Positions 1 to 49,875 of a DNA stretch of 63,652 bases are shown here, in pieces. Origin of the DNA: Bacteroidota bacterium (GTDB taxonomy: Bacteria; Bacteroidota; Ignavibacteria; UBA10030; UBA8401); contig JBMOHT010000004.1 in NCBI GenBank assembly GCA_049317705.1, positions 1-63,652 of the forward strand, in the 5' to 3' direction. The position numbers were made by a program, and so were the translations under genes. The stretch's first letter is position 1, and the number at the start of each line of letters is the position of its first letter. Below the pieces are notes generated by a model. The model was not told the origin of the DNA and searched no databases. It saw nothing but the letters and a program-made list of their open reading frames with translations.

Positions 1-245
1 CGCCGTTTTTATGGCGGGAATAATCACGAATGTAGGTCCGGACTCTTTACCCGCCGTGTTTTTTGGCGGGCTGTCCGGACCGCGTTCTCGCCGCGTTCGT
101 AGAAATCTCACACAAAGTCCGCCGAAGGCGGACAAAGACACAAAGACCACAAAGAAGATCCATCCACGAATACCACGCCCGCACCAAAGGTGTCCCTTTG
201 GGACCCGCCGTTTTTATGGCGGGAATAATCACGAATGTAGGTCCG
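1..245. repeat. Perfect 40-nt direct repeat (1-40 = 206-245) in hairpin-rich non-coding DNA
   Basis: cgccgtttttatggcgggaataatcacgaatgtaggtccg occurs twice, 205 nt apart. GC stems lie between the copies: cccgcc-N9-ggcggg 50-70, gtccgcc-gaa-ggcggac 117-133, gtccc-ttt-gggac 192-204. Only low-complexity ORFs overlap. Confidence 0.8.
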
Positions 246-419
246 CACCGTTCTACAAAAAAATCCGCAGCATCACGTATCTCAACGCTTCCTCGATGCC
301 ATGTCTAATATTGGACATGTGTTACCATGTCATCAATCCCCAAAAATCATACTAATTCCTCTTAATTAGAATACTCTAAAATCACCGAGAATTATCCAAA
401 ACATTGGAAATTCACTGAT

Positions 420-3207: not shown

Positions 3208-4932
3208 ATGAAATGGTTCTTGGATCTTAAACTCGGCACAAAACTGATAAGCAGTTTTTCATTGATAGCATTGATCGCGGCATACATCGGATATGAAGGA
3301 TATGTGGCTGCAACAGAAATAAGAGAAAATCAGGATGAGTTATATCTCGGTCGACTTATCCCGATCAGGGATCTTGGATATGCCAATGCATCGCTTCTGA
3401 TCGCCCGTGGTGATGTGAGGAATTTTCTTGCCGCCGTAACTCCGGAGGACCAGCAAAAGTATTTGACCGTTGTCAACAACGAATCAAAAAAGGTCGATGA
3501 ATATATCGAAAAATATTCCAAGGGGAACTTGATGCCTGAGGAAAAAGAACAGCTGAGTTTATTTCATACGAACTGGAAGGAATATACCTCGATCCGTGAC
3601 GAAGCCCTCCAAATGGTGCTCGCCGGGAAAAAACAGGAAGCAGTGAAAATGATCGACGGTAATGCCCGTGCATCGATGACGGCGGCACGCAAGACCCTCC
3701 GTGCATTGATCGACTTCAATGCAGTAGAATCGGACAAACTTGATGTTGCTACCGATGCTCAGGCAGAGAGATCCGTCACGAGCATTTTTGTTCTGTTGGG
3801 TGTTGGAGTGGTCCTGTCGCTTTCGATGGGATTCTTCATTGCAAAAGTGATCGCAGATCCGGTGAAAGAACTTGTCGATAATATCAAGAATGCCGACCTC
3901 AATTCCCGCTTCAACAGCGAACGTAAAGACGAGATCGGGGGCCTGCAGACGGCATTCGACGGTTTCGTTGAACAGATCAAACAGACGCTCGTTCAGGTCT
4001 CCGAATCGTCCGCGGCAGTGGCAAGTGCCAGTACGCAGATCAGTTCATCCACCGAACAGCTTGCTGCCGGCGCACAGGAACAGAGTTCCCAGTCTGCCGA
4101 AGTGGCCGGTGCTGTGGAAGAGATGACAAAAACGATCATTGAGAATTCCCGTAATGCGAGCGATACAGCTGAGACCGCAAAGAAAGCAAAAACGACAGCG
4201 CAAAAAGGGGGAGATGTTGTCCGTCAGACGGTTGTTGGAATGAAGGATATCGCTGTTGTCGTCAACAAATCCGCACAGACCGTGAGAGCGCTCGGTAAAT
4301 CAAGCGATCAGATCGGCGAGATCATCAGTGTGATCGACGATATCGCGGACCAGACGAATCTTCTTGCGTTGAACGCCGCCATCGAAGCAGCACGAGCCGG
4401 TGAACAGGGCCGTGGATTCGCCGTGGTAGCCGATGAAGTGCGCAAACTCGCTGAACGAACAACAAAAGCCACAAAAGAGATCGCATCGATGATCAAACAG
4501 ATCCAGGTCGATACGAAGGATGCCGTCTTCTCGATGGATGAAGGGACAAAGAAAGTGAATGACGGTATTCGGCTCGCGGATGAAGCGGGTGAATCTCTGA
4601 AAGAGATCATCGAGATCAGCCAGGTAGTGACCGACAAGATATCCCAGATCGCGGCAGCAAGCGAACAGCAGTCCAGCGCCAGCGAACAGATCAGCAAGAA
4701 TGTGGAAGCGATCAGCACCGTTACCCAGGAAAGCGCAAGCGGCACACAGCAGATCGCTCGCACGGCGGAAGATCTAAACCGGCTGACGGAGAATCTGCAG
4801 ACACTTCTGAACAAGTTCAATCTTGAAGGGACGAAGCAGACGGAGCATCACGATGCGTATAAGAGACCAAAATATACGGCGCAACGATCCCGCAAAGCCG
4901 TGACGGAACACGGACAGCTCGTGGAACATTGA
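3208..4932 (+). CDS. mcp: Methyl-accepting chemotaxis protein 2 (helical periplasmic sensor)
   Basis: Same architecture as MCP1 with a divergent sensor. The cytoplasmic half is nearly identical to MCP1 and MCP4, including a 59-nt identical DNA run. Confidence 0.95.
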
Positions 4933-4993
4933 CCGAATGGAACAAGTGTATCAAGGATAGATGCATTCACTATAATCAATCAAGGAGGATGAT

Positions 4994-5530
4994 ATGAAGA
5001 AAACAATCTACGTAGTATTGATGCTCTGCACGGTACTTCCAATCATGCTGACGGCTCAGAACAAAGCAACGTTCGGTCAGGTATTGGGTGTGATCAAAAA
5101 ATTGAAGACCGATCTCGCGGTCGTCGGAGTGATGAGCTCCACGCTCAGTTCAAAAGATATCGAGAGTATGACCCGCGCTGCCATGCAGCAAGGAGTGAAA
5201 CTATACGTTACAGAACCGAAGGACGTTCGTGAGGTCTCCGCATTGTACAAAGCGCTGGTGAACGACAAGAAGGCCCAGTTGATCATCATTCCGGACAATG
5301 CCGATAAGACCATGACCGGAATGGGATTCGAATTCATCAAAGAGAATGCCACCATCGACCGCATCGGTATTTGCGCTCCCGATCCTTCCATGATCTCACA
5401 GGGGGCAATGTGCAGTATCGTGAAAGAGAATGAGAAGATCGTTGTCTATATCAATCAAAAGGTGCTGGCATTTGTCAATGCAAAGATGCCCGCAGAAGAG
5501 ATCACCTCCATCAGCTTCGTCTTGAAATAA
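4994..5530 (+). CDS. Secreted/periplasmic 178-aa protein of unknown family, paired with MCP3
   Basis: Signal peptide MKKTIYVVLMLCTVLPIMLTAQ and an AAGGAGG RBS. The stop lies 11 nt before the MCP3 start. Confidence 0.6.
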   Translation: MKKTIYVVLMLCTVLPIMLTAQNKATFGQVLGVIKKLKTDLAVVGVMSSTLSSKDIESMTRAAMQQGVKLYVTEPKDVREVSALYKALVNDKKAQLIIIPDNADKTMTGMGFEFIKENATIDRIGICAPDPSMISQGAMCSIVKENEKIVVYINQKVLAFVNAKMPAEEITSISFVLK

Positions 5531-5541
5531 GGAACTGAATC

Positions 5542-7161
5542 ATGAAGATAGAAACGAAGATCCAGATACCCATTTTTATTTTCTCCGTCCTTCTCGCACT
5601 CGTGCTGAGCGTTCTCTATATGGAATTCCTCGGCAGTGTCGTCTTCGATCAGTTCTCGAAGAACGGATCATCCGTTGCTTCATCTCTGGGGATCTCAGGC
5701 AGGCTCAGTGTGATGATGAGGGATTCTGCGCAGCTCAATACCATCAGCGAATCGGCATTCTCCGATGAGAACGTCCGGTTCGTGTCGTATTATGACGACA
5801 AAGGAGAATGGATCACCACGCGCGGGAATGATGATCATATCGTGATCCCCAAAGAATTGCTGCGGACACAGAAACCGGTAACACAGGAAACGGAGACCGA
5901 GAAACTTGGGACAGTGGAAATGTTTGCCGTTCCGGTATTCGCCCGGGCAGGAGAAACATCGACCATCGGAACGGTTGTACTTGCGATATCAAAAGAGCAG
6001 CTCCATGAGAACCGCAATAACGCTGTTATGCTGGCGATCGGTTCGACAGTGATCCTGCTCGTTCTGGTGTTGGTCAGTTTCCGGTTCATCCTCCGTCAAA
6101 TGATCATTCAGCCGGTCAATCAGGTGATCGAATCCATCAATACAGCGGACCTCAACTCGCAGTTCAACTCCGTCCGCAAAGATGAAGTTGGCGATCTTCA
6201 GCGCTCATTCGATGGATTCGTCACAAATATCAAGAACACCCTCCTTCAGGTCTCTGAAGCATCCTCTGCGGTGGCAAGCGCCAGCGTAGAGATCAGCTCT
6301 TCGGCTGAGGAACTTTCCTCGGGCGCCAGCGAACAGAGTGCGCAGTCAGCCGAAGCATCCACGGCGGTAGGCGAAATGGCCGGCAGCATTTCAGAGAATA
6401 CCCGGAATGCAAAAGAGACGCTCGAAACGGCACATCAGGCGAAACAGACTGCGGAACAAGGCGGTATCGTCGTTCAACGGACCGTCGACAGCATGAAGAA
6501 TATCGCTCTGGTCGTGAATCGGTCCGCTGAAACGGTGAAGACACTCGGAAAATCGAGCGACCAGATCGGCGAGATCGTCAGCGTGATCAACGACATCGCC
6601 GATCAGACGAATCTGCTTGCATTGAACGCTGCCATCGAAGCGGCACGCGCCGGTGAACAAGGACGCGGTTTCGCCGTTGTGGCCGACGAAGTGAGGAAAC
6701 TTGCCGAACGGACAACGAAAGCGACCAAAGAGATCGCATCGATGATCAAACAGATCCAGTCCGATACCAAAGAAGCGGTCATGTCCATGGATGAAGGGAC
6801 CAAGAAGGTCTCCGACGGTATTCAGCTCGCAGACCATGCCGGCGACTCACTGCTGGAGATCATGAAGATCAGCCAGATCGTGACTGAAAAAGTGACACAG
6901 ATCTCAGCGGCGAGCGAACATCAGTCCCACGCCAGCGCGATGATCAGCAACAGCGTCGATAAGATCAACGCCGTCACTCATCAGAATGTTGAGGGGACGA
7001 GGATGATCGCACAATCGGTGGAAGCATTGAATCATCTCACGGATAATCTGCAGTTGCTGCTCGGGAAGTTCAAACTCGGCAATGCCCGGCAGTCAGGCTC
7101 GGATCATCATGAACGTTCACGAAAAGCCGTGTCGGAACATGGGCATTTGGTGGACCATTGA
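5542..7161 (+). CDS. mcp: Methyl-accepting chemotaxis protein 3 (about 150-aa periplasmic sensor of unassigned fold)
   Basis: TM1, periplasmic region, TM2, HAMP ([13 protein letters not shown]), conserved signalling hairpin, C-terminal [14 protein letters not shown] tail. Confidence 0.93.
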
Positions 7162-7253
7162 ACATAGTAATTTTCCGATGACCGTTGAAGGTCGTCGGGA
7201 TACGTATCCGATCACATAGAAAATATTTACCATTAGACGCAAAGGATTTCGCC

Positions 7254-8876
7254 ATGAAACAGACCATACTTTTTCTTCTGATGATATCCGCACTTCTTCC
7301 GTCATCGTCACCGGCTCAGAATTTCAATAAAGTGATCGAGATCGTCGGCGGATTGGAAGAGTCCATGAAAGGACTCATCGCCAAAGAAGAGCGGACACGT
7401 ACGCAGGAGATCGCAGCGATCCGTTCCGACATCACATCGCTGAAGACGGCACTCTTCAAAGAGGATACCGTGAACAGCAAACATCTGCTCATCGCATCCG
7501 CTGATGCACAGAGCGTTCTTGACCGTCTTGAAGTGCTTGAGAACCGACCGGCTCCGCAGGGAGCATCACCCGAAATGAATTCACTTGCTGGACAGTTGGA
7601 TCAGCTGGTCGATGAATTGAAAAAGGTCGTTGACGAGGGAAAAGCGCTGCAGCAGAAACAGCTCACCGTTCCTCCACAGTTATATACGATCAACGGACAG
7701 GTCCGTCACCGCGGTGAAGTTGACGGACGCACGTTCGCTCCCGAGGCCCGCGCGATCGGTTACAACCTTCTCCGTTCACGGTTCACCGTTTCCATTGCTC
7801 CTGCTGCGGATACGAAGATCATGTTCCAACTGCAGGATTCGCGTGTGTTCGGTGCAGGGAATCCGGCACTGAACCGCGGCGTGCAGGACGGTATGTCGAA
7901 ATCCATCGATTTCCATCAGGCATATTTCGCACTCACCAATGTCTTCTCGCTGCCGATGAGTGTGAAACTCGGCAGACAGGAACTTGCATACGGGAAACAG
8001 CGGTTGATCGCTTCCGCGGGATGGAATAATTTTGGCAATACATTCGACGCGCTCTCTGCACAATACAATGCAGGTCCGGCGACCTTTGATGCATTCTTCG
8101 CAAAACTCGTCGGAAGCCAGACAAGCGTCTATTCCGAGAATATCACCGGATTGTATTCCCTGGTAAAATACAGCGATGCTCATACTGCCGATGCGTTCGT
8201 CTTCTATGATAATAATACCACACCGCTGTTAAAAGGGACCGACAAAGGAAAAGCGCGTCTCGGCAGGTATTCCACCGGTATCACCCTGATGGGAAAACCA
8301 AAACCGTTCGATTACGAAGCGGAGTTGATCCTTCAGCGCGGTTCGTATGCGGTCACGGACAGTTCTTCCGTCTCATCGATCTCCGCATATCTCTACTCGG
8401 TCTCAGCGGGATATCTGATCGATGCTAACAGCAAACTGCGTGTCGGTGTGAAATTCCAGGTAATGTCCGGCGACGATAATCAGAAGGTCGGGAAGTATTC
8501 GAGCTATAATACACTCTTCTCATCCGCTCATTCATTCTTCGGATATATGGATTTCTTCCCGAAGTCATCCCCGGAATACGGTGTTCGCGCTTATTCCGTC
8601 CATTCAGGCATGGAACTGTCGCCGGAACTTTCATGGAACGCCGATATGTACTATTACCTGTATGACGCGGTGCCGACATTGAAAACGTCATCCGGCGCGA
8701 TCGTGAAGGACCAGTCGCTCGGTTACGAGGCGGACCTTACGATGGCCTATAAATACTCCAGTATGGTAACGATCAATTACGGCGGCAGTGCGTTCATTCC
8801 TGAAACAGCGATGATCGCGTTGAAAGGTCCCGCAGTTTCCTATTGGGGATTTGTAATGACAACGATCAATTTTTGA
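7254..8876 (+). CDS. Outer-membrane beta-barrel porin, alginate-export (AlgE-like) family candidate, with N-terminal coiled coil
   Basis: ATG 7254 gives the signal peptide MKQTILFLLMISALLPSSSPAQ. GRQELAYGKQRLIASAGWNNFGNTFDAL resembles the alginate-export signature. The C-terminal ...TTINF is an aromatic terminus typical of OM barrels. Confidence 0.6.
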   Translation: MKQTILFLLMISALLPSSSPAQNFNKVIEIVGGLEESMKGLIAKEERTRTQEIAAIRSDITSLKTALFKEDTVNSKHLLIASADAQSVLDRLEVLENRPAPQGASPEMNSLAGQLDQLVDELKKVVDEGKALQQKQLTVPPQLYTINGQVRHRGEVDGRTFAPEARAIGYNLLRSRFTVSIAPAADTKIMFQLQDSRVFGAGNPALNRGVQDGMSKSIDFHQAYFALTNVFSLPMSVKLGRQELAYGKQRLIASAGWNNFGNTFDALSAQYNAGPATFDAFFAKLVGSQTSVYSENITGLYSLVKYSDAHTADAFVFYDNNTTPLLKGTDKGKARLGRYSTGITLMGKPKPFDYEAELILQRGSYAVTDSSSVSSISAYLYSVSAGYLIDANSKLRVGVKFQVMSGDDNQKVGKYSSYNTLFSSAHSFFGYMDFFPKSSPEYGVRAYSVHSGMELSPELSWNADMYYYLYDAVPTLKTSSGAIVKDQSLGYEADLTMAYKYSSMVTINYGGSAFIPETAMIALKGPAVSYWGFVMTTINF

Positions 8877-15729: not shown

Positions 15730-16248
15730 ATGAAATATTCCGTTCAACCCACCAGCGAAGAACTTGTCATGCGGGACAACGAATTCATCATCTCTAAGAC
15801 CGATCTGCAGGGAAAGATCACCTATGCAAATCGGACATTCATGGAGTATAGCGGATTCACGGAACAGGAACTCCTCAATGCCCCGCACAGCATCATCCGT
15901 CATCCCGACATGCCGCGCGGTGTATTCAAACTCCTTTGGGATACCGTTCAAAGCGGAGTGGAGATCTGTGCATACGTGAAGAACATGTCCAAGTCCGGCG
16001 CATACTATTGGGTCTTCGCGAATGTCACACCTGTCGTAGACGGGAACGGTGCCATCGTGGGATATTATTCCGTCCGCAGAAAACCGAAGACTGAAGCGAT
16101 CCGCGCTATCGAGCCGTTATACCGTGAGATGCTTCAGGCGGAGCAGAGGACGAATTCCAAAGAAGCACCATCCGTATCGGTGCAGCTGGCGGTTGAAAAA
16201 TTAAAAGAATTGAGCATCGAATATGATGAGTTCGTTCTTTCCTTATAA
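15730..16248 (+). CDS. Free-standing Aer-type (FAD-binding class) PAS protein 1
   Basis: [47 protein letters not shown]...YVKNMSKSGAYYWVFANVTPV parallels the E. coli Aer PAS region (RHPDMP, LW, VKNR-KNG-YWV). No TM or MCP domain. Confidence 0.85.
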   Translation: MKYSVQPTSEELVMRDNEFIISKTDLQGKITYANRTFMEYSGFTEQELLNAPHSIIRHPDMPRGVFKLLWDTVQSGVEICAYVKNMSKSGAYYWVFANVTPVVDGNGAIVGYYSVRRKPKTEAIRAIEPLYREMLQAEQRTNSKEAPSVSVQLAVEKLKELSIEYDEFVLSL

Positions 16249-16296
16249 GTATATCAATTCTCATACTCTTTCATGATGTCAATAAAAGGTGCACCT

Positions 16297-18414
16297 ATGA
16301 AACGCTTTCAAGATCTCAAAATACGAACGAAACTCCTTAGTGCTTTTCTTGGAATGGCATTGGTCTCCGGTGTGATCGGATGGATCGGATATGATTCAGC
16401 CCAGACCATGATGCAACTTCAGGATACGATCTACCTGGACCGGCTCGTCCCGATCCGTGATCTCGGTTTTGCCGGCAATGCAGTCCATCATGCGGATTCC
16501 AGGATCAAACAATTGGTCGCTGTAAAGGATCCCGTTGAAAAACGGCGATTGAATACTGAGATCGCAGCTGAAATAGCCAAAACGAATGAATTGATCGATG
16601 CATACAGTAAGACCTATCTTGTGGAAGAAGAGGTCACGAATTTGGCGAAATTTCGAGAGGAATGGCCGAAATTTGTCTCAGCTGCGGACGAGATCCGTTT
16701 GCTGGTTCAGCAGGGCCGGAATTTCGATGCGCAGAGGATCATTGATTCGGAATTATCGAAACGTTCTGAATCATCAGTGGCCTTCATTGAAGAATTGGTC
16801 AATGTCAATGCACGAGTGGCTGAACAGATCGACCACGAAACGGATACAACGTCCAATTGGGCAGTGACGAAATTATTAATAGCACTGTCCGCCGGACTCG
16901 TTATTTCCATTATGGTGGGAATGTTCTTCTCACGATACATTGCAAATATTCTGAACCAAATGGTGAACGCATCCAATAAGATAGCACAAGGTGAGATCGA
17001 TCAACGGATCGATTATCGTTCCGAAGATGAATTCGGAAAACTTGCCGATTCATTCCGAGGAATGATCGATTATATGCACGGCATCGCCACCGCATCTGAA
17101 GCGATCGGGAAAGGGAATCTTGATGTGAACGTTACCGCTAAATCATCGAATGATACGCTGTCGAACAGTTTCATCCGTACAGCGAACGTTCTGAAAAGTA
17201 TGAGCAAAGAGATCAACACGCTGAACGGTGCAGGACGGAATGGTTCTCTGACCGTGCGCGGAAATGCGTCGCAGTATCATGGTGAGTTCAAACAGATGAT
17301 CCAGGGGATCAATGAAACGCTCGACGCCATCGTCATTCCGCTCAACGAGAGCAATGATGTACTCTATAAAATGTCGCACGGCGATCTCTCCGTACGGTTG
17401 AATAACAATTATAAAGGTGACCTTCAGAAGATGAAGCAGTCCGTCAACACGGTCGGCGAATCACTCTCCAGTGCCCTGCAGAATGTCGCATTCTCCATCC
17501 AGGCAACGGCAACGGCAAGCAGTCAGATCTCCGCATCGGTCGAAGAAATGACCTCGGGATTGAACGAACAGTCCAGTCAGACCTCCGAAGTGGCGAGCGC
17601 AGTCGAGGAGATGGCGAAGACCATCATGGAGAATTCCAAGAATGCCGTCGATACTTCTGAGACCGCAATGAAAGCAAAACAGTACGCGCAGGAAGGATTC
17701 GACGTCGTAGAAGAGACAGCGGTCGGTATGACGAAACTTGCGGAGATCGTCCGCAGATCGGCTGAGACCGTTCACGAACTCGGCCGCTCGAGCAATCAGA
17801 TCGGTGAGATCGTCCGCGTGATCGAAGATATCGCCGATCAGACGAATCTGCTCGCTCTGAACGCCGCGATCGAAGCAGCACGCGCCGGTGATCAGGGACG
17901 CGGATTTGCCGTCGTCGCCGATGAAGTGCGCAAGTTGTCCGAACGGACGACGAAATCCACAAAAGAGATCGCGGTAATGATCAAGAAGATCCAGAGCGAG
18001 ACCTCGGGTGCCGTGGAATCCATGGAAGAAGGAACACGCAGTGTTGATGTCAGCATCGAACAGACGGAGAAAGCCCGCGTATCACTGAATCACATCCTCG
18101 ACATCTCTCAAAAGGTGACAGAGATGGTCTCCCATATCGCAACGGCAAGCACCGAACAGACGAGGGCCAGCGATGTGATCAGCAAGAATATCGATGCCAT
18201 CAGCGCGGTCGCACAGCAAAGCTCCGTCGGCAATCAGCAGATCGCCAAAGCAATGAACGATCTGAATCAACAGACCGACCATCTGCAGAACCTCATCGGT
18301 ACATTCAAATTCTCCGGTGATGAATCGAAGATGCATGCGCCGAGAACTGTCCGGAATGATAAGAAGCATCGTCAGCCGGCGTTCGAGAACGGTTCAATGG
18401 AATATCATAACTAG
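16297..18414 (+). CDS. mcp: Methyl-accepting chemotaxis protein 7 (helical periplasmic sensor, at least two HAMP-like units)
   Basis: [14 protein letters not shown] start (ATG 16297). HAMP ([14 protein letters not shown]), a second HAMP-like segment ([22 protein letters not shown]), then the signalling hairpin with [21 protein letters not shown]. Confidence 0.9.
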
Positions 18415-18600
18415 TGCTGTTTCCAATAAATCATATTGTGTTTTCAAACAGTCACGCTGAGCGACGTCCCGACAATACTTCCCCCAATGGGGTCCCTTCG
18501 GGAGACTCGTCCACCCGTGGTGGACTCGCTCAGTATGACTGTCGGGACGGAGTCGAAGCGTATTTAAAAATATAATCTTACTTTTTAGAAACAGCACTAG
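18411..18600 (+). mobile_element. 190-bp MITE-like structured element with perfect 13-bp terminal inverted repeats
   Basis: ctagtgctgtttc (18411-18423) is the exact reverse complement of gaaacagcactag (18588-18600). It is flanked by, or includes, CTAG on both sides. The interior is packed with hairpins. A paralog lies at 49427-49552. Confidence 0.7.
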
Positions 18601-18632
18601 AATACAATCACAATAATGAATACGGGAATATT

Positions 18633-19151
18633 ATGAGAATGAATATCCAGCCGACGAACGAAGAACTCGTCATGCGAGACGGAGAGTTCATCGTATCGAA
18701 GACCGATCTGAAAGGTCAGATCACGTACGGTAACAGGACCTTTATGGAATTTGCGGGACATCCGGAAAAAGACCTTCTGGGAGCGCCGCACAATATCATC
18801 CGTCATCCCGATATGCCGCGGGGCGTTTTCCAACTTTTGTGGGACACGATCCGCAGCAACGCGGAGATCTTCGCCTATGTCAAGAATATGAGCGCAAACG
18901 GCGCATTCTATTGGGCGTTTGCAAATGTCTCTCCGGTGGTGGACGGGAACAATAATGTTATCGGATACTGCTCCGTCCGCCGTAAACCGTCATCGTCTGC
19001 CATTCAGACGCTGATTCCGGTCTACCGTGAAATGGTCCGGATCGAACAAAAGAGTAAATCAAAAGAATCGGTCATAGAATCGGTTGAATACCTTAAAAAT
19101 TTTTTGAATGAAAGGACGATGAGTTATGAAGAGTTTATTCTCAGTATTTAA
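18633..19151 (+). CDS. Free-standing Aer-type PAS protein 2
   Basis: Paralog of 15730-16248, also 172 aa ([19 protein letters not shown]...[21 protein letters not shown]). Confidence 0.85.
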
Positions 19152-48549: not shown

Positions 48550-48664
48550 AGTAAGATAAATCGGAATAGAAATAAGAAATGAAGCAAACAGTGTGTTATA
48601 CCGCGAACGGATTCGACATAACACAATTCAGATGGAAGCACGGAGGCGTAATTGATATGTGCGC

Positions 48665-49411
48665 ATGGCGAAAAAAATACTATTCATCCTGATCCTTTGT
48701 GCAGCCGTCTCCGCAGTTCTTCCGGCGCAGCAGCTTCCGCTCCCCAAACTCAGCATTGAGGTCGGGAAAGCCACCAAGCCGGATGATATCTCCGTCACTC
48801 TTCAGATCCTGATGCTCATGACCGTGCTCTCGCTGGCACCGGCCATCCTCATCCTTACCACCGCATTCACCCGCATCATCGTCGTCCTTCACTTCTTGAA
48901 ACAGGCAATGGGAACCCCGCAAATGCCTCCGTCGCAGGTGCTGGTCGGACTCGCAATGTTCCTGACGTTCTTCGTGATGGCTCCCGTGTGGAATACAATG
49001 AATACCGATGCCATCCAGCCGTACATGAAAGGGAAGATGACCGCAACAGCCGCATATGAAAAAGCGTCGGTGCCGCTCCGCACATTCATGTTCAAGCAGA
49101 CGCGCGAAGAGGATCTTGCCTTGTTCGTGAAGATGAGCAACATGGCAAAACCGGCCACGCGTAACGACATCCCGATCCACGTGCTCATCCCGGCATTCGC
49201 CATCAGCGAACTGCGGATGGGATTCCAGATCGGATTCATCCTCTTCATTCCGTTCCTCATCATCGACATGGTCGTCGCGAGTATCCTCATGTCTATGGGA
49301 ATGATGATGCTTCCGCCGAGCATGGTCTCGCTGCCCTTCAAGATCCTGCTCTTCATTCTGGTGGACGGATGGAATCTGGTGATCGCGTCGCTCATTGCAA
49401 GTTTTCATTGA
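48665..49411 (+). CDS. fliP: Flagellar export apparatus protein FliP
   Basis: Signal peptide. TLQILMLMTVLSLAPAILILTTAFTRIIVVLHFLKQAMGTPQMPPSQVLVGLAMFLTFFVMAPV. Confidence 0.95.
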   Translation: MAKKILFILILCAAVSAVLPAQQLPLPKLSIEVGKATKPDDISVTLQILMLMTVLSLAPAILILTTAFTRIIVVLHFLKQAMGTPQMPPSQVLVGLAMFLTFFVMAPVWNTMNTDAIQPYMKGKMTATAAYEKASVPLRTFMFKQTREEDLALFVKMSNMAKPATRNDIPIHVLIPAFAISELRMGFQIGFILFIPFLIIDMVVASILMSMGMMMLPPSMVSLPFKILLFILVDGWNLVIASLIASFH

Positions 49412-49426
49412 CCAAAATGCTGATCT

Positions 49427-49552
49427 CAATAAATCATATTGTGTTTTTAGGTAGTCACGCTGAGCAACGTCCCGACGATGCTTCGACTCGTCCAATAAAT
49501 TGGACTCGCTCAGCATGACTGTCGGGACGGAGTCGAAGCATCAAAAATATTT
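49427..49552 (+). repeat. Second copy of the structured element at 18411-18600 (core; degenerate ends reach about 49413-49589)
   Basis: Shares caataaatcatattgtgtttt, agtcacgctgagc.acgtcccgac, ggactcgctcag.atgactgtcgggacggagtcgaagc and aaaaatat with copy A. Lacks the 22-nt insertion of copy A. Confidence 0.8.
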
Positions 49553-49605
49553 AATACCACAAGTAATTTTGAATCGGTAACAGAATATAGAAACAAGAAG
49601 GGAAT

Positions 49606-49875
49606 ATGACAGAAGAATTCGTTGTGAACATCATCCGTGAAGCGTTCTTCACCACCATGCTCATCGCCGCACCGGTGCTGCTGTTGTCGCTCATCGTCGG
49701 ATTGATCATCTCCATTCTGCAGGCAGCGACCTCCATTCAGGAAGTGACGATCACCTTCCTGCCGAAGATGATCATTATCGGACTCGTCCTGATCTTTACC
49801 TTGCCGTGGATGATCGATGTGATGACATCCTTTACCGTGAATCTTATCCAGCAAATTCCGAATCTTAACAGGTGA
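49606..49875 (+). CDS. fliQ: Flagellar export apparatus protein FliQ
   Basis: 89 aa, two TM. REAFFTTMLIAAPVLLLSLIVGLIISILQAATSIQEVTITFLPK. Confidence 0.93.
   Translation: MTEEFVVNIIREAFFTTMLIAAPVLLLSLIVGLIISILQAATSIQEVTITFLPKMIIIGLVLIFTLPWMIDVMTSFTVNLIQQIPNLNR

Follow-up and report, generated by a model that had tools for sequence, protein, structure and literature searches.

We found that a 190-bp stretch (18411-18600) in 63,652 nucleotides of DNA from a Bacteroidota bacterium (GCA_049317705.1, contig JBMOHT010000004.1, positions 1-63,652; the whole of this DNA is called the window here), which came from a freshwater metagenome, is very probably a non-autonomous miniature inverted-repeat transposable element (MITE) derived from an insertion sequence (IS) of the IS630/Tc1-mariner family. 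This element, copy A, sits on the stop codon of a methyl-accepting chemotaxis protein (MCP) gene, MCP7, and a second copy, copy B, lies between fliP and fliQ. A preliminary description of the same DNA had called the stretch MITE-like, with perfect 13-bp termini, no transposase open reading frame (ORF), an interior made of a chain of stems, the TAG stop of MCP7 (18412-18414) inside the left terminus and a tccc-ttcg-ggga tetraloop hairpin (18482-18503) missing from copy B; the terminal sequences, the ORF limits, the strong folding and the alignment of the two copies agree with it on each of these points. It had also proposed to count copies, to search for a full-length IS with matching termini and to look for empty sites in relatives. 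All three were found: copy B in the window and copies in many metagenome-assembled genomes (MAGs) and metagenomes, two full-length ISs (L021 and L027) with an IS630-family transposase, and an exact empty site for copy B together with short spacers at the junctions orthologous to copy A. The opposite outcome that it had named, a unique and ancestral sequence, was thus not what we observed. Copy A is a real but ordinary type of mobile element; this type of MITE is already known, and the family member is new.

The left terminus, CTAGTGCTGTTTC (18411-18423), and the right one, GAAACAGCACTAG (18588-18600), are perfect 13-bp reverse complements of each other, and 0 of 100 shuffles reached at least 4 matches at no more than 2 mismatches. 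The true inverted repeat of copy A is 10 bp long, GTGCTGTTTC / GAAACAGCAC (18414-18423 and 18588-18597); the outer C and G of the 13-bp termini are target bases, and the target duplication is the TA that flanks the repeat on either side. Copy A contains no transposase gene, and its sole ORF of at least 60 aa is a 67-aa GTG ORF on the minus strand, which we take to be spurious. The features of the element are as follows.

18414..18597, plus strand: MITE copy A proper, 184 bp (nhmmer family profile, matching 18411-18600 with E = 5.6e-52)
18412..18413, no strand: left copy of the TA target-site duplication (sequence; TA/TA flanks in 51/62 family members listed)
18414..18423, plus strand: left terminal inverted repeat GTGCTGTTTC, which matches the IS630-family IS terminus GTGCCGTTTC except for one base
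18588..18597, minus strand: right terminal inverted repeat GAAACAGCAC (sequence and comparison with the IS terminus)
18598..18599, no strand: right copy of the TA target-site duplication (sequence; TA/TA flanks of the family)

When metagenomes were scanned with the left end TAGTGCYGTTTCCAATAAA, at least 120 loci were obtained, and the figures given for termini, target sites and insertions are those among the matches listed. The termini TA-GTGCCGTTTCC...GGAAACGGCAC-TA were common to MITEs (100-363 bp) and to full-length ISs in metagenomes. Complete short elements numbered 52; they measured 100-363 bp (mode 154 bp) and combined these ends with a variety of other hairpin-rich interiors, and the core of the window's element was present in none of the at least 120 left-end loci listed. 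Many other loci were contigs ending about 75-125 bp into the element, as is expected because it is a multi-copy repeat. Two full-length ISs were recovered, L021 (1135 bp, 146-1280) and L027 (1151 bp, 3945-5095), and a third long element (L080) was cut by a contig end. The two ORFs of L021 and L027 correspond to the two halves of NCBIfam transpos_IS630 (NF033545, E = 1e-20 to 3e-25) and also match Pfam DDE_3 and HTH_32/HTH_29. Copy A has the same orientation as the L027 IS, with "end A" at the left and "end B" at the right: its ends agreed with those of L027 at 20/22 positions over the first 22 nt at either end, and the match was end-specific, with 32/40 for end B against end B of L027 and 25/40 in the cross comparison. 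The terminal repeat of copy A reads GTGCTG for the GTGCCG of the ISs, a one-base change present at both ends, and MITEs L074 and L016 mix the GTGCTG and GTGCCG variants.

In the L021/L027 group, two ORFs, a conserved 164-aa OrfA and a DDE OrfB, together make up the IS630-family transposase. Because an A8 run lies at the OrfA/OrfB junction of L021 (~720-740), a programmed frameshift between the two ORFs is likely. Hundreds of protein clusters (P0241-P0360 among them) contain the 164-aa OrfA as an ORF of its own; one cluster takes its name from Anaerohalosphaera lusitana (Planctomycetota), and this IS630-type transposase has likely spread across phyla. Two further kinds of element with such ends were observed. 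L020 (a 129-bp element) and L070 (a 174-bp element) have an internal junction GGAAACGTGCAC-TA-GTGCACGCTTCC, in which a right and a left end abut on one TA, as though two very small MITEs stood head to tail. In a 602-nt contig of run X1, similar in depth (6.9x vs 7.6x), a 34-nt right end like 18568-18601 with 3 mismatches is joined to a different interior (...GCGCGCCGAAGGATGATC); this contig probably represents a second MITE of the superfamily, either from the same organism or from its community.

TA was found at both ends in 51 of the 62 two-ended elements, with outer bases that vary, such as cTAc in L038 and tTAa in L051. Among 48 unique reconstructed sites, a C preceded the left TA in 26/48 and a G followed the right TA in 37/48; the surroundings of these target sites are A/T-rich, and their two sides are asymmetric (26 C vs 37 G). 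Since the bases outside the TA vary across elements, the comparison indicates that the duplication is TA, that G is the first base of the element and C its last, and that CTAG is only the preferred target context. IS630 is reported to insert at TA within 5'-CTAG-3' (Tenzen & Ohtsubo 1991, as cited in PMC2170065).

Copy B sits between fliP (48659-49411) and fliQ (49606-49875; Pfam FliP and Bac_export_3).

49417..49586, plus strand: MITE copy B, 170 bp, with scrambled termini (nhmmer E = 5e-48; empty site in L135)

The left TA of copy B has decayed to AA (49415-49416), and its right TA is at 49587-49588. The homologues of the window's FliP form a graded series, the closest of which, L135 (GCA_943369855.1), has 99% aa identity in FliP, 94% nt identity in fliP and 93% nt identity in fliQ. 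Its fliP-fliQ spacer is 21 nt long, TTGACCG-TA-GAAACGGGAAGGGAAT, and differs from that of the window by exactly the 170-nt element and one further TA, so that the empty site of copy B reads TTGACCG-TA-GAAAC with a single TA. Farther FliP relatives (93-83%) have fliP-fliQ spacers of 7-10 nt. At copy A, the orthologous MCP-PAS junctions (PAS 84% and 73% aa, with alignable MCP C-termini) have spacers of 24 and 29 nt, and the 218-nt spacer of the window becomes 30 nt after the element and one TA are subtracted. These comparisons indicate that copies A and B are insertions and not ancestral sequence. No empty-site joints were found in the source-study DNA runs, every one of which has site A filled, and the contigs of these runs tend to break inside copy A. 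When the window's FliQ and PAS proteins were looked up by exact sequence, only the source contig or no match was returned.

Some observations were made on these relatives themselves. One orthologous MCP-PAS junction (L143, 562-739) has an unrelated 178-nt spacer with its own inverted repeats directly after the TAG stop, possibly the result of a separate insertion, by a different small element, at a like site. GCA_943369855.1 (the source of L004 and L135), the MAG nearest to the window's organism, is titled "Chitinophaga pinensis". It has genes for flagella, and the labels of homologues that share 80-85% identity with FliP of the window are Bacteroidetes or Ignavibacteriales; the species label of this MAG is probably wrong.

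To follow the family that shares the core of the element, one genome per species was scanned with a 20-mer query from the core, and the 13 stretches returned were sorted by the family profile. Seven were elements with both termini and the same core, with the ends (C)TA-GTGCCGTTTCCAATAAA...GAGAAACGGCAC-TA(G); three were partial or end-decayed copies (L001, L002, L011); two were small hairpin units with core motifs only (L007, L008); and L005 was rejected as a chance match in a coding region. Apart from two further ones whose labels are probably wrong, the core-bearing MAGs carry the label Bacteroidota or Ignavibacteria, and a single MAG (GS21) has as many as 4 copies; the MAG "Synechococcus sp. 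UW140", which holds L002 and L010, may have a binning or labelling problem similar to that of GCA_943369855.1. Core 31-mers also occurred in many other metagenomes (lakes, wastewater, sediment, peat and soil). Unrelated genes adjoin the same element in other MAGs, and copies lie in both orientations relative to the neighbouring genes. A scan of viral contigs with a core 23-mer gave 0 matches, blastn of the element against PLSDB plasmids gave no match, and nothing specific was found in the literature on a MITE of this kind in Bacteroidetes.

Within the window, the family profile detected two copies only, A and B. Relative to copy A, exactly 22 nt (18482-18503 in copy A) are missing from copy B. 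Its left terminal 13 nt have 5 changes relative to copy A and its right end has an extra base (49415-49440, 49570-49588), while the 21 nt next to the scrambled terminus are 21/21 identical to copy A. Between the two copies, identity was 88% in the core and 75% and 45% in the ends, and the core of copy B, compared by eye with that of L004 (the copy in GCA_943369855.1), showed 3 differences in 88 nt (~97% identity). Because of the 5 changes in the terminal 13 nt and the scrambled right end, copy B is almost certainly immobile. Uniform neutral decay does not explain this uneven decay, which is concentrated on the transposase-binding ends; possible causes are the survivorship of copies unable to excise, error-prone repair following abortive cleavage, and constraint on the cargo.

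The interior of the element is strongly folded: the RNA fold of the 190-bp stretch reached -75.6 kcal/mol vs -44.1 +/- 3.8 for shuffles (z = -8.3). The features of the core are as follows.

18450..18561, plus strand: hairpin-rich core (sequence reading, alignments A1/A3; 95% of cells paired)
18482..18503, plus strand: 22-nt two-hairpin module (cccc-aat-gggg, tccc-ttcg-ggga) ccccaatggggtcccttcggga, absent in copy B (alignment A1)
18509..18525, plus strand: apical hairpin GTCCACC-cgt-GGTGGAC, with compensatory variants in other copies

An outer palindromic unit, CTGAGCG-GTCCCGAC...GTCGGGAC-GAGTCGAAG, holds in its loop a second, similar unit in reversed orientation, CTTC..GACTC-GTCCACC cgt GGTGGAC-TCGCTCAG. 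The three long complementarities of the core are ordered 1-2-3...1'-2'-3' and cannot all nest. A pseudoknotted ribozyme or riboswitch was considered and ruled out, the 1-2-3-1'-2'-3' order being explained by nested palindromes of opposite orientation; a hammerhead was likewise rejected, since the conserved letters that recall a hammerhead could not, in our own comparison, be matched to its core, and Rfam gave no match. No Rfam 15 family matched at gathering score in the whole window, and at E <= 10 on 18350-18680 the only match was a chance one to CRISPR-DR49 (15 bits). The element contains no terminator-like or promoter-like site, and two source-study metatranscriptomes yielded no contigs from either locus.

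The 22-nt double hairpin is a recurring module and a polymorphism of the family, because L006 also has it and larger variants carry further hairpin modules; related modules are present in L003, and similar GGGATCCCTTCGGGA hairpins in the unrelated MITEs L053 and L066. Variants of the apical hairpin (GTCCAAT/ATTGGAC, GCCCAAT/ATTGGGC and GTCCGCC/GGCGGAC) keep its pairing. In pair counts over eight copies, 95% of the cells were paired, and the sole double changes affected 2 pairs of the terminal stem and 2 pairs of the apical hairpin. No variation was seen in the core helices of these copies, which makes covariation uninformative either way. In related MAGs, palindromic units of the core form are also found on their own, either isolated or in tandem (L007, L008 and the flanks of L013). 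Because such units are free-standing and MITEs with the same ends carry other cassettes, the cargo looks like captured or nested palindromes resembling REP sequences (repetitive extragenic palindromes).

Units of the form GTCATCCTGAGCG-stem-loop-stem-GAGTCGAAGGATGAC, which are abundant and REP-like, were located in L007 (~7150-7300), L008 (~3600-3750) and L013 (5830-5900 and 6106-6165). The first part of the window (1-248) has a 43-nt direct repeat (1-43 and 206-248, 98% identical) on either side of several clustered short hairpins rich in GC, GGTCCGGAC/GTCCGGACC at 35-81, GTCCGCCGAAGGCGGAC at ~117-133 and GTCCCTTTGGGAC at ~192-204; these look like further REP-like cassettes in the style of the MITE cargo.

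The host locus of copy A comprises two genes.

16273..18414, plus strand: methyl-accepting chemotaxis protein gene MCP7 (ORF list; Pfam 4HB_MCP_1, HAMP, HAMP_2 and MCPsignal)
18633..19151, plus strand: downstream PAS-domain gene (ORF list and Pfam; orthologous junction spacers 24-29 nt)

The TAG stop of MCP7 at 18412-18414 consists of the left TA duplication and the first base, G, of the element. As the element starts with G, TA plus G restores TAG and the MCP7 protein is unaltered; the 32-nt leader of the PAS gene (18601-18632) is not affected by the insertion either. TA and the first G read TAG inward from both sides, so an element that enters the TA of either TAG or TAA leaves a stop codon in place, and the same type of insertion has restored the stop at L006, L003, L070, L099, L038 and others. 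Among the matches listed, 7 of 27 evaluable unique insertions lie on the TA of the stop of a long ORF, and a crude local null predicted 7.3. As the null predicts about the number observed, we do not claim that stop codons are targeted, and we read these insertions as the outcome of the TA/CTAG preference and of selection against insertions in coding sequence. About nine paralogous MCP genes, MCP7 included, form a tandem array (window 1300-24600), with 300-nt repeat families of 60-87% identity, and small PAS-domain genes are paired with the array at 15730-16248 and 18633-19151.

A mechanism can be proposed for copy A as a MITE of the IS630 family. The element retains about 20-35 bp of each IS end, with a ~110-bp cassette of nested palindromic hairpins in place of the ~1.1-kb transposase region. 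An IS630-family transposase, supplied in trans, would bind the GTGCYGTTTCC termini, excise the element and paste it into a TA, which is thereby duplicated; we infer such cut-and-paste mobilisation in trans from the established behaviour of the IS630 family (PMC2170065). At copy A, the target was the TA within the MCP stop codon (C-TAG), with TAG restored and the PAS leader kept. With its perfect ends, copy A could still be mobile if a matching transposase is present. Both copies, or at least copy B, are presumably transcribed with their operons, and the transcribed copies would give the mRNA a very stable bundle of stem-loops without a terminator; an effect on mRNA stability or processing, modelled on the Correia/NEMIS and ERIC repeats, is a conjecture.

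Several results weigh against the derivation from IS630. No IS with an exact GTGCTG terminus was recovered among the matches listed, no exact empty copy A site was found in a near-identical genome, and no contig at least 80% like IS_L027 was present in four source-study DNA runs, which is a weak test because IS630 DNA diverges and the assemblies are of 4-8x. Moreover, a core better conserved than the ends, as in copy B vs copy A, is not obviously expected of a passive passenger. As to the duplication, the preliminary description had left a choice between TA and an IS5-type 4-bp CTAG; the former stood and the latter did not. An IS5-family MITE duplicating CTAG would account for the CTAG found at each end of copy A and of most members of its subfamily, and in a single CTAG-flanked copy the sequence cannot tell a CTAG duplication from a TA duplication within CTAG. 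However, the flanks of elements that share these termini include cTAc, tTAa, gTAg and aTAg, with TA alone duplicated, and the target of copy B was cgTAga, as read from the L135 empty site. The marks of the IS5 family, a 4-bp CTAG/YTAR duplication and IS5-type IS termini, are missing, only TA being shared by the flanks, and the full-length ISs with such termini encode IS630-family proteins and not IS5/DDE_Tnp_1, which makes an IS5 origin very improbable. Even less credence, indeed almost none, is due to an ancestral conserved intergenic sequence with a regulatory role in the chemotaxis and flagellar operons, transposon-like only in appearance: both window copies do lie in intergenic spacers of motility operons, but orthologous spacers do without the element, the genes beside it in other MAGs are unrelated, and its TA-flanked inverted termini are those of an IS.

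A more substantial alternative, though in our view still an unlikely one, is that the hairpin core is the functional unit, a selected cis-acting RNA or single-stranded DNA element of operon transcripts (a stabiliser, or an RNase III/E site) for which the IS630 ends are a vehicle. It would agree with the very stable folds (z = -8.3 and -4.7), the C(UUCG)G tetraloop in the core, the compensatory variants of the apical hairpin, the better conservation of core than of ends in the immobilised copy B, the occurrence of core 31-mers across many unrelated metagenomes, the shared orientation of copies A and B relative to transcription, and several plus-strand helices with G-U but no A-C pairs; the Correia/NEMIS and ERIC elements provide a precedent (PMC2229807). 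Yet the L003 and L010 copies are oriented opposite to the adjacent gene, the invariant core helices give no covariation support, close relatives dispense with the element at both loci, the core matches no Rfam family, and MITEs with the same ends have quite different cores, so that the cargo looks arbitrary. A related idea, to which we give a similarly small chance, is that in these Bacteroidota/Ignavibacteria-like genomes IS630-type ends spread modular palindromic RNA/DNA cassettes into operon spacers, where the cassettes are kept by selection, perhaps because they stabilise or process mRNA, and the ends inactivated. Such selection would fit copy B because of its 5 terminal changes, the 21/21 identity of the next 21 nt and a core ~97% identical to that of L004.

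Among known systems, the closest analogue of the IS630-derived MITE described here is RUP/IS630-Spn1. RUP of pneumococcus is a MITE attributed to IS630-Spn1 and, like our element, is about 100-190 bp long and non-coding, with IS630-type terminal inverted repeats, insertion at TA and assumed mobilisation in trans (PMC2229807). Unlike RUP, with which it has no sequence similarity, our element has a Bacteroidota/Ignavibacteria-type host and not Streptococcus, and a long GC-rich cargo of nested hairpins with many variants. IS630 of Shigella sonnei and ISY100 of Synechocystis share with the L021/L027 family the TA duplication and a cut-and-paste DDE transposase with N-terminal HTH domains (PMC2170065), and the CTAG preference of IS630 is paralleled by the excess of C (26/48) and G (37/48) at the unique sites listed; unlike them, our element has no transposase, and the related L021 and L027 are split into a 164-aa OrfA and a DDE OrfB. 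The Correia/NEMIS repeats of Neisseria and ERIC of enterobacteria are likewise small, strongly folding, TA-flanked or intergenic repeats, and are co-transcribed with their neighbours, altering mRNA processing and stability (PMC2229807). They have no sequence relation to our element, but serve as the model for an effect that it may have at the RNA level. Correia has no identified parent IS, in contrast to the IS630-family parent identified here.

REP/REPIN palindromes are mobilised by RAYT transposases. They resemble the core of our element in being short GC-rich palindromic units, which are free-standing or in tandem in L007, L008 and the L013 flanks (a resemblance only). Unlike them, our element is of IS630 type, bounded by terminal inverted repeats and TA, and no REP-type 5' tetranucleotide was seen; no RAYT gene was seen either, no search for RAYT genes having been made.

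These results document an IS630-type MITE family, together with its parent IS, in uncultured Ignavibacteria-like Bacteroidota. They show how such an element can be seated harmlessly within a tightly packed flagellar export operon or on a stop codon, the latter because TA and the element's first G restore TAG. For annotation, the MITE accounts for long spacers, contig breaks, spurious small ORFs and the core 31-mers in metagenomes. A new biological question would arise only if the hairpin cargo proves to be selected.

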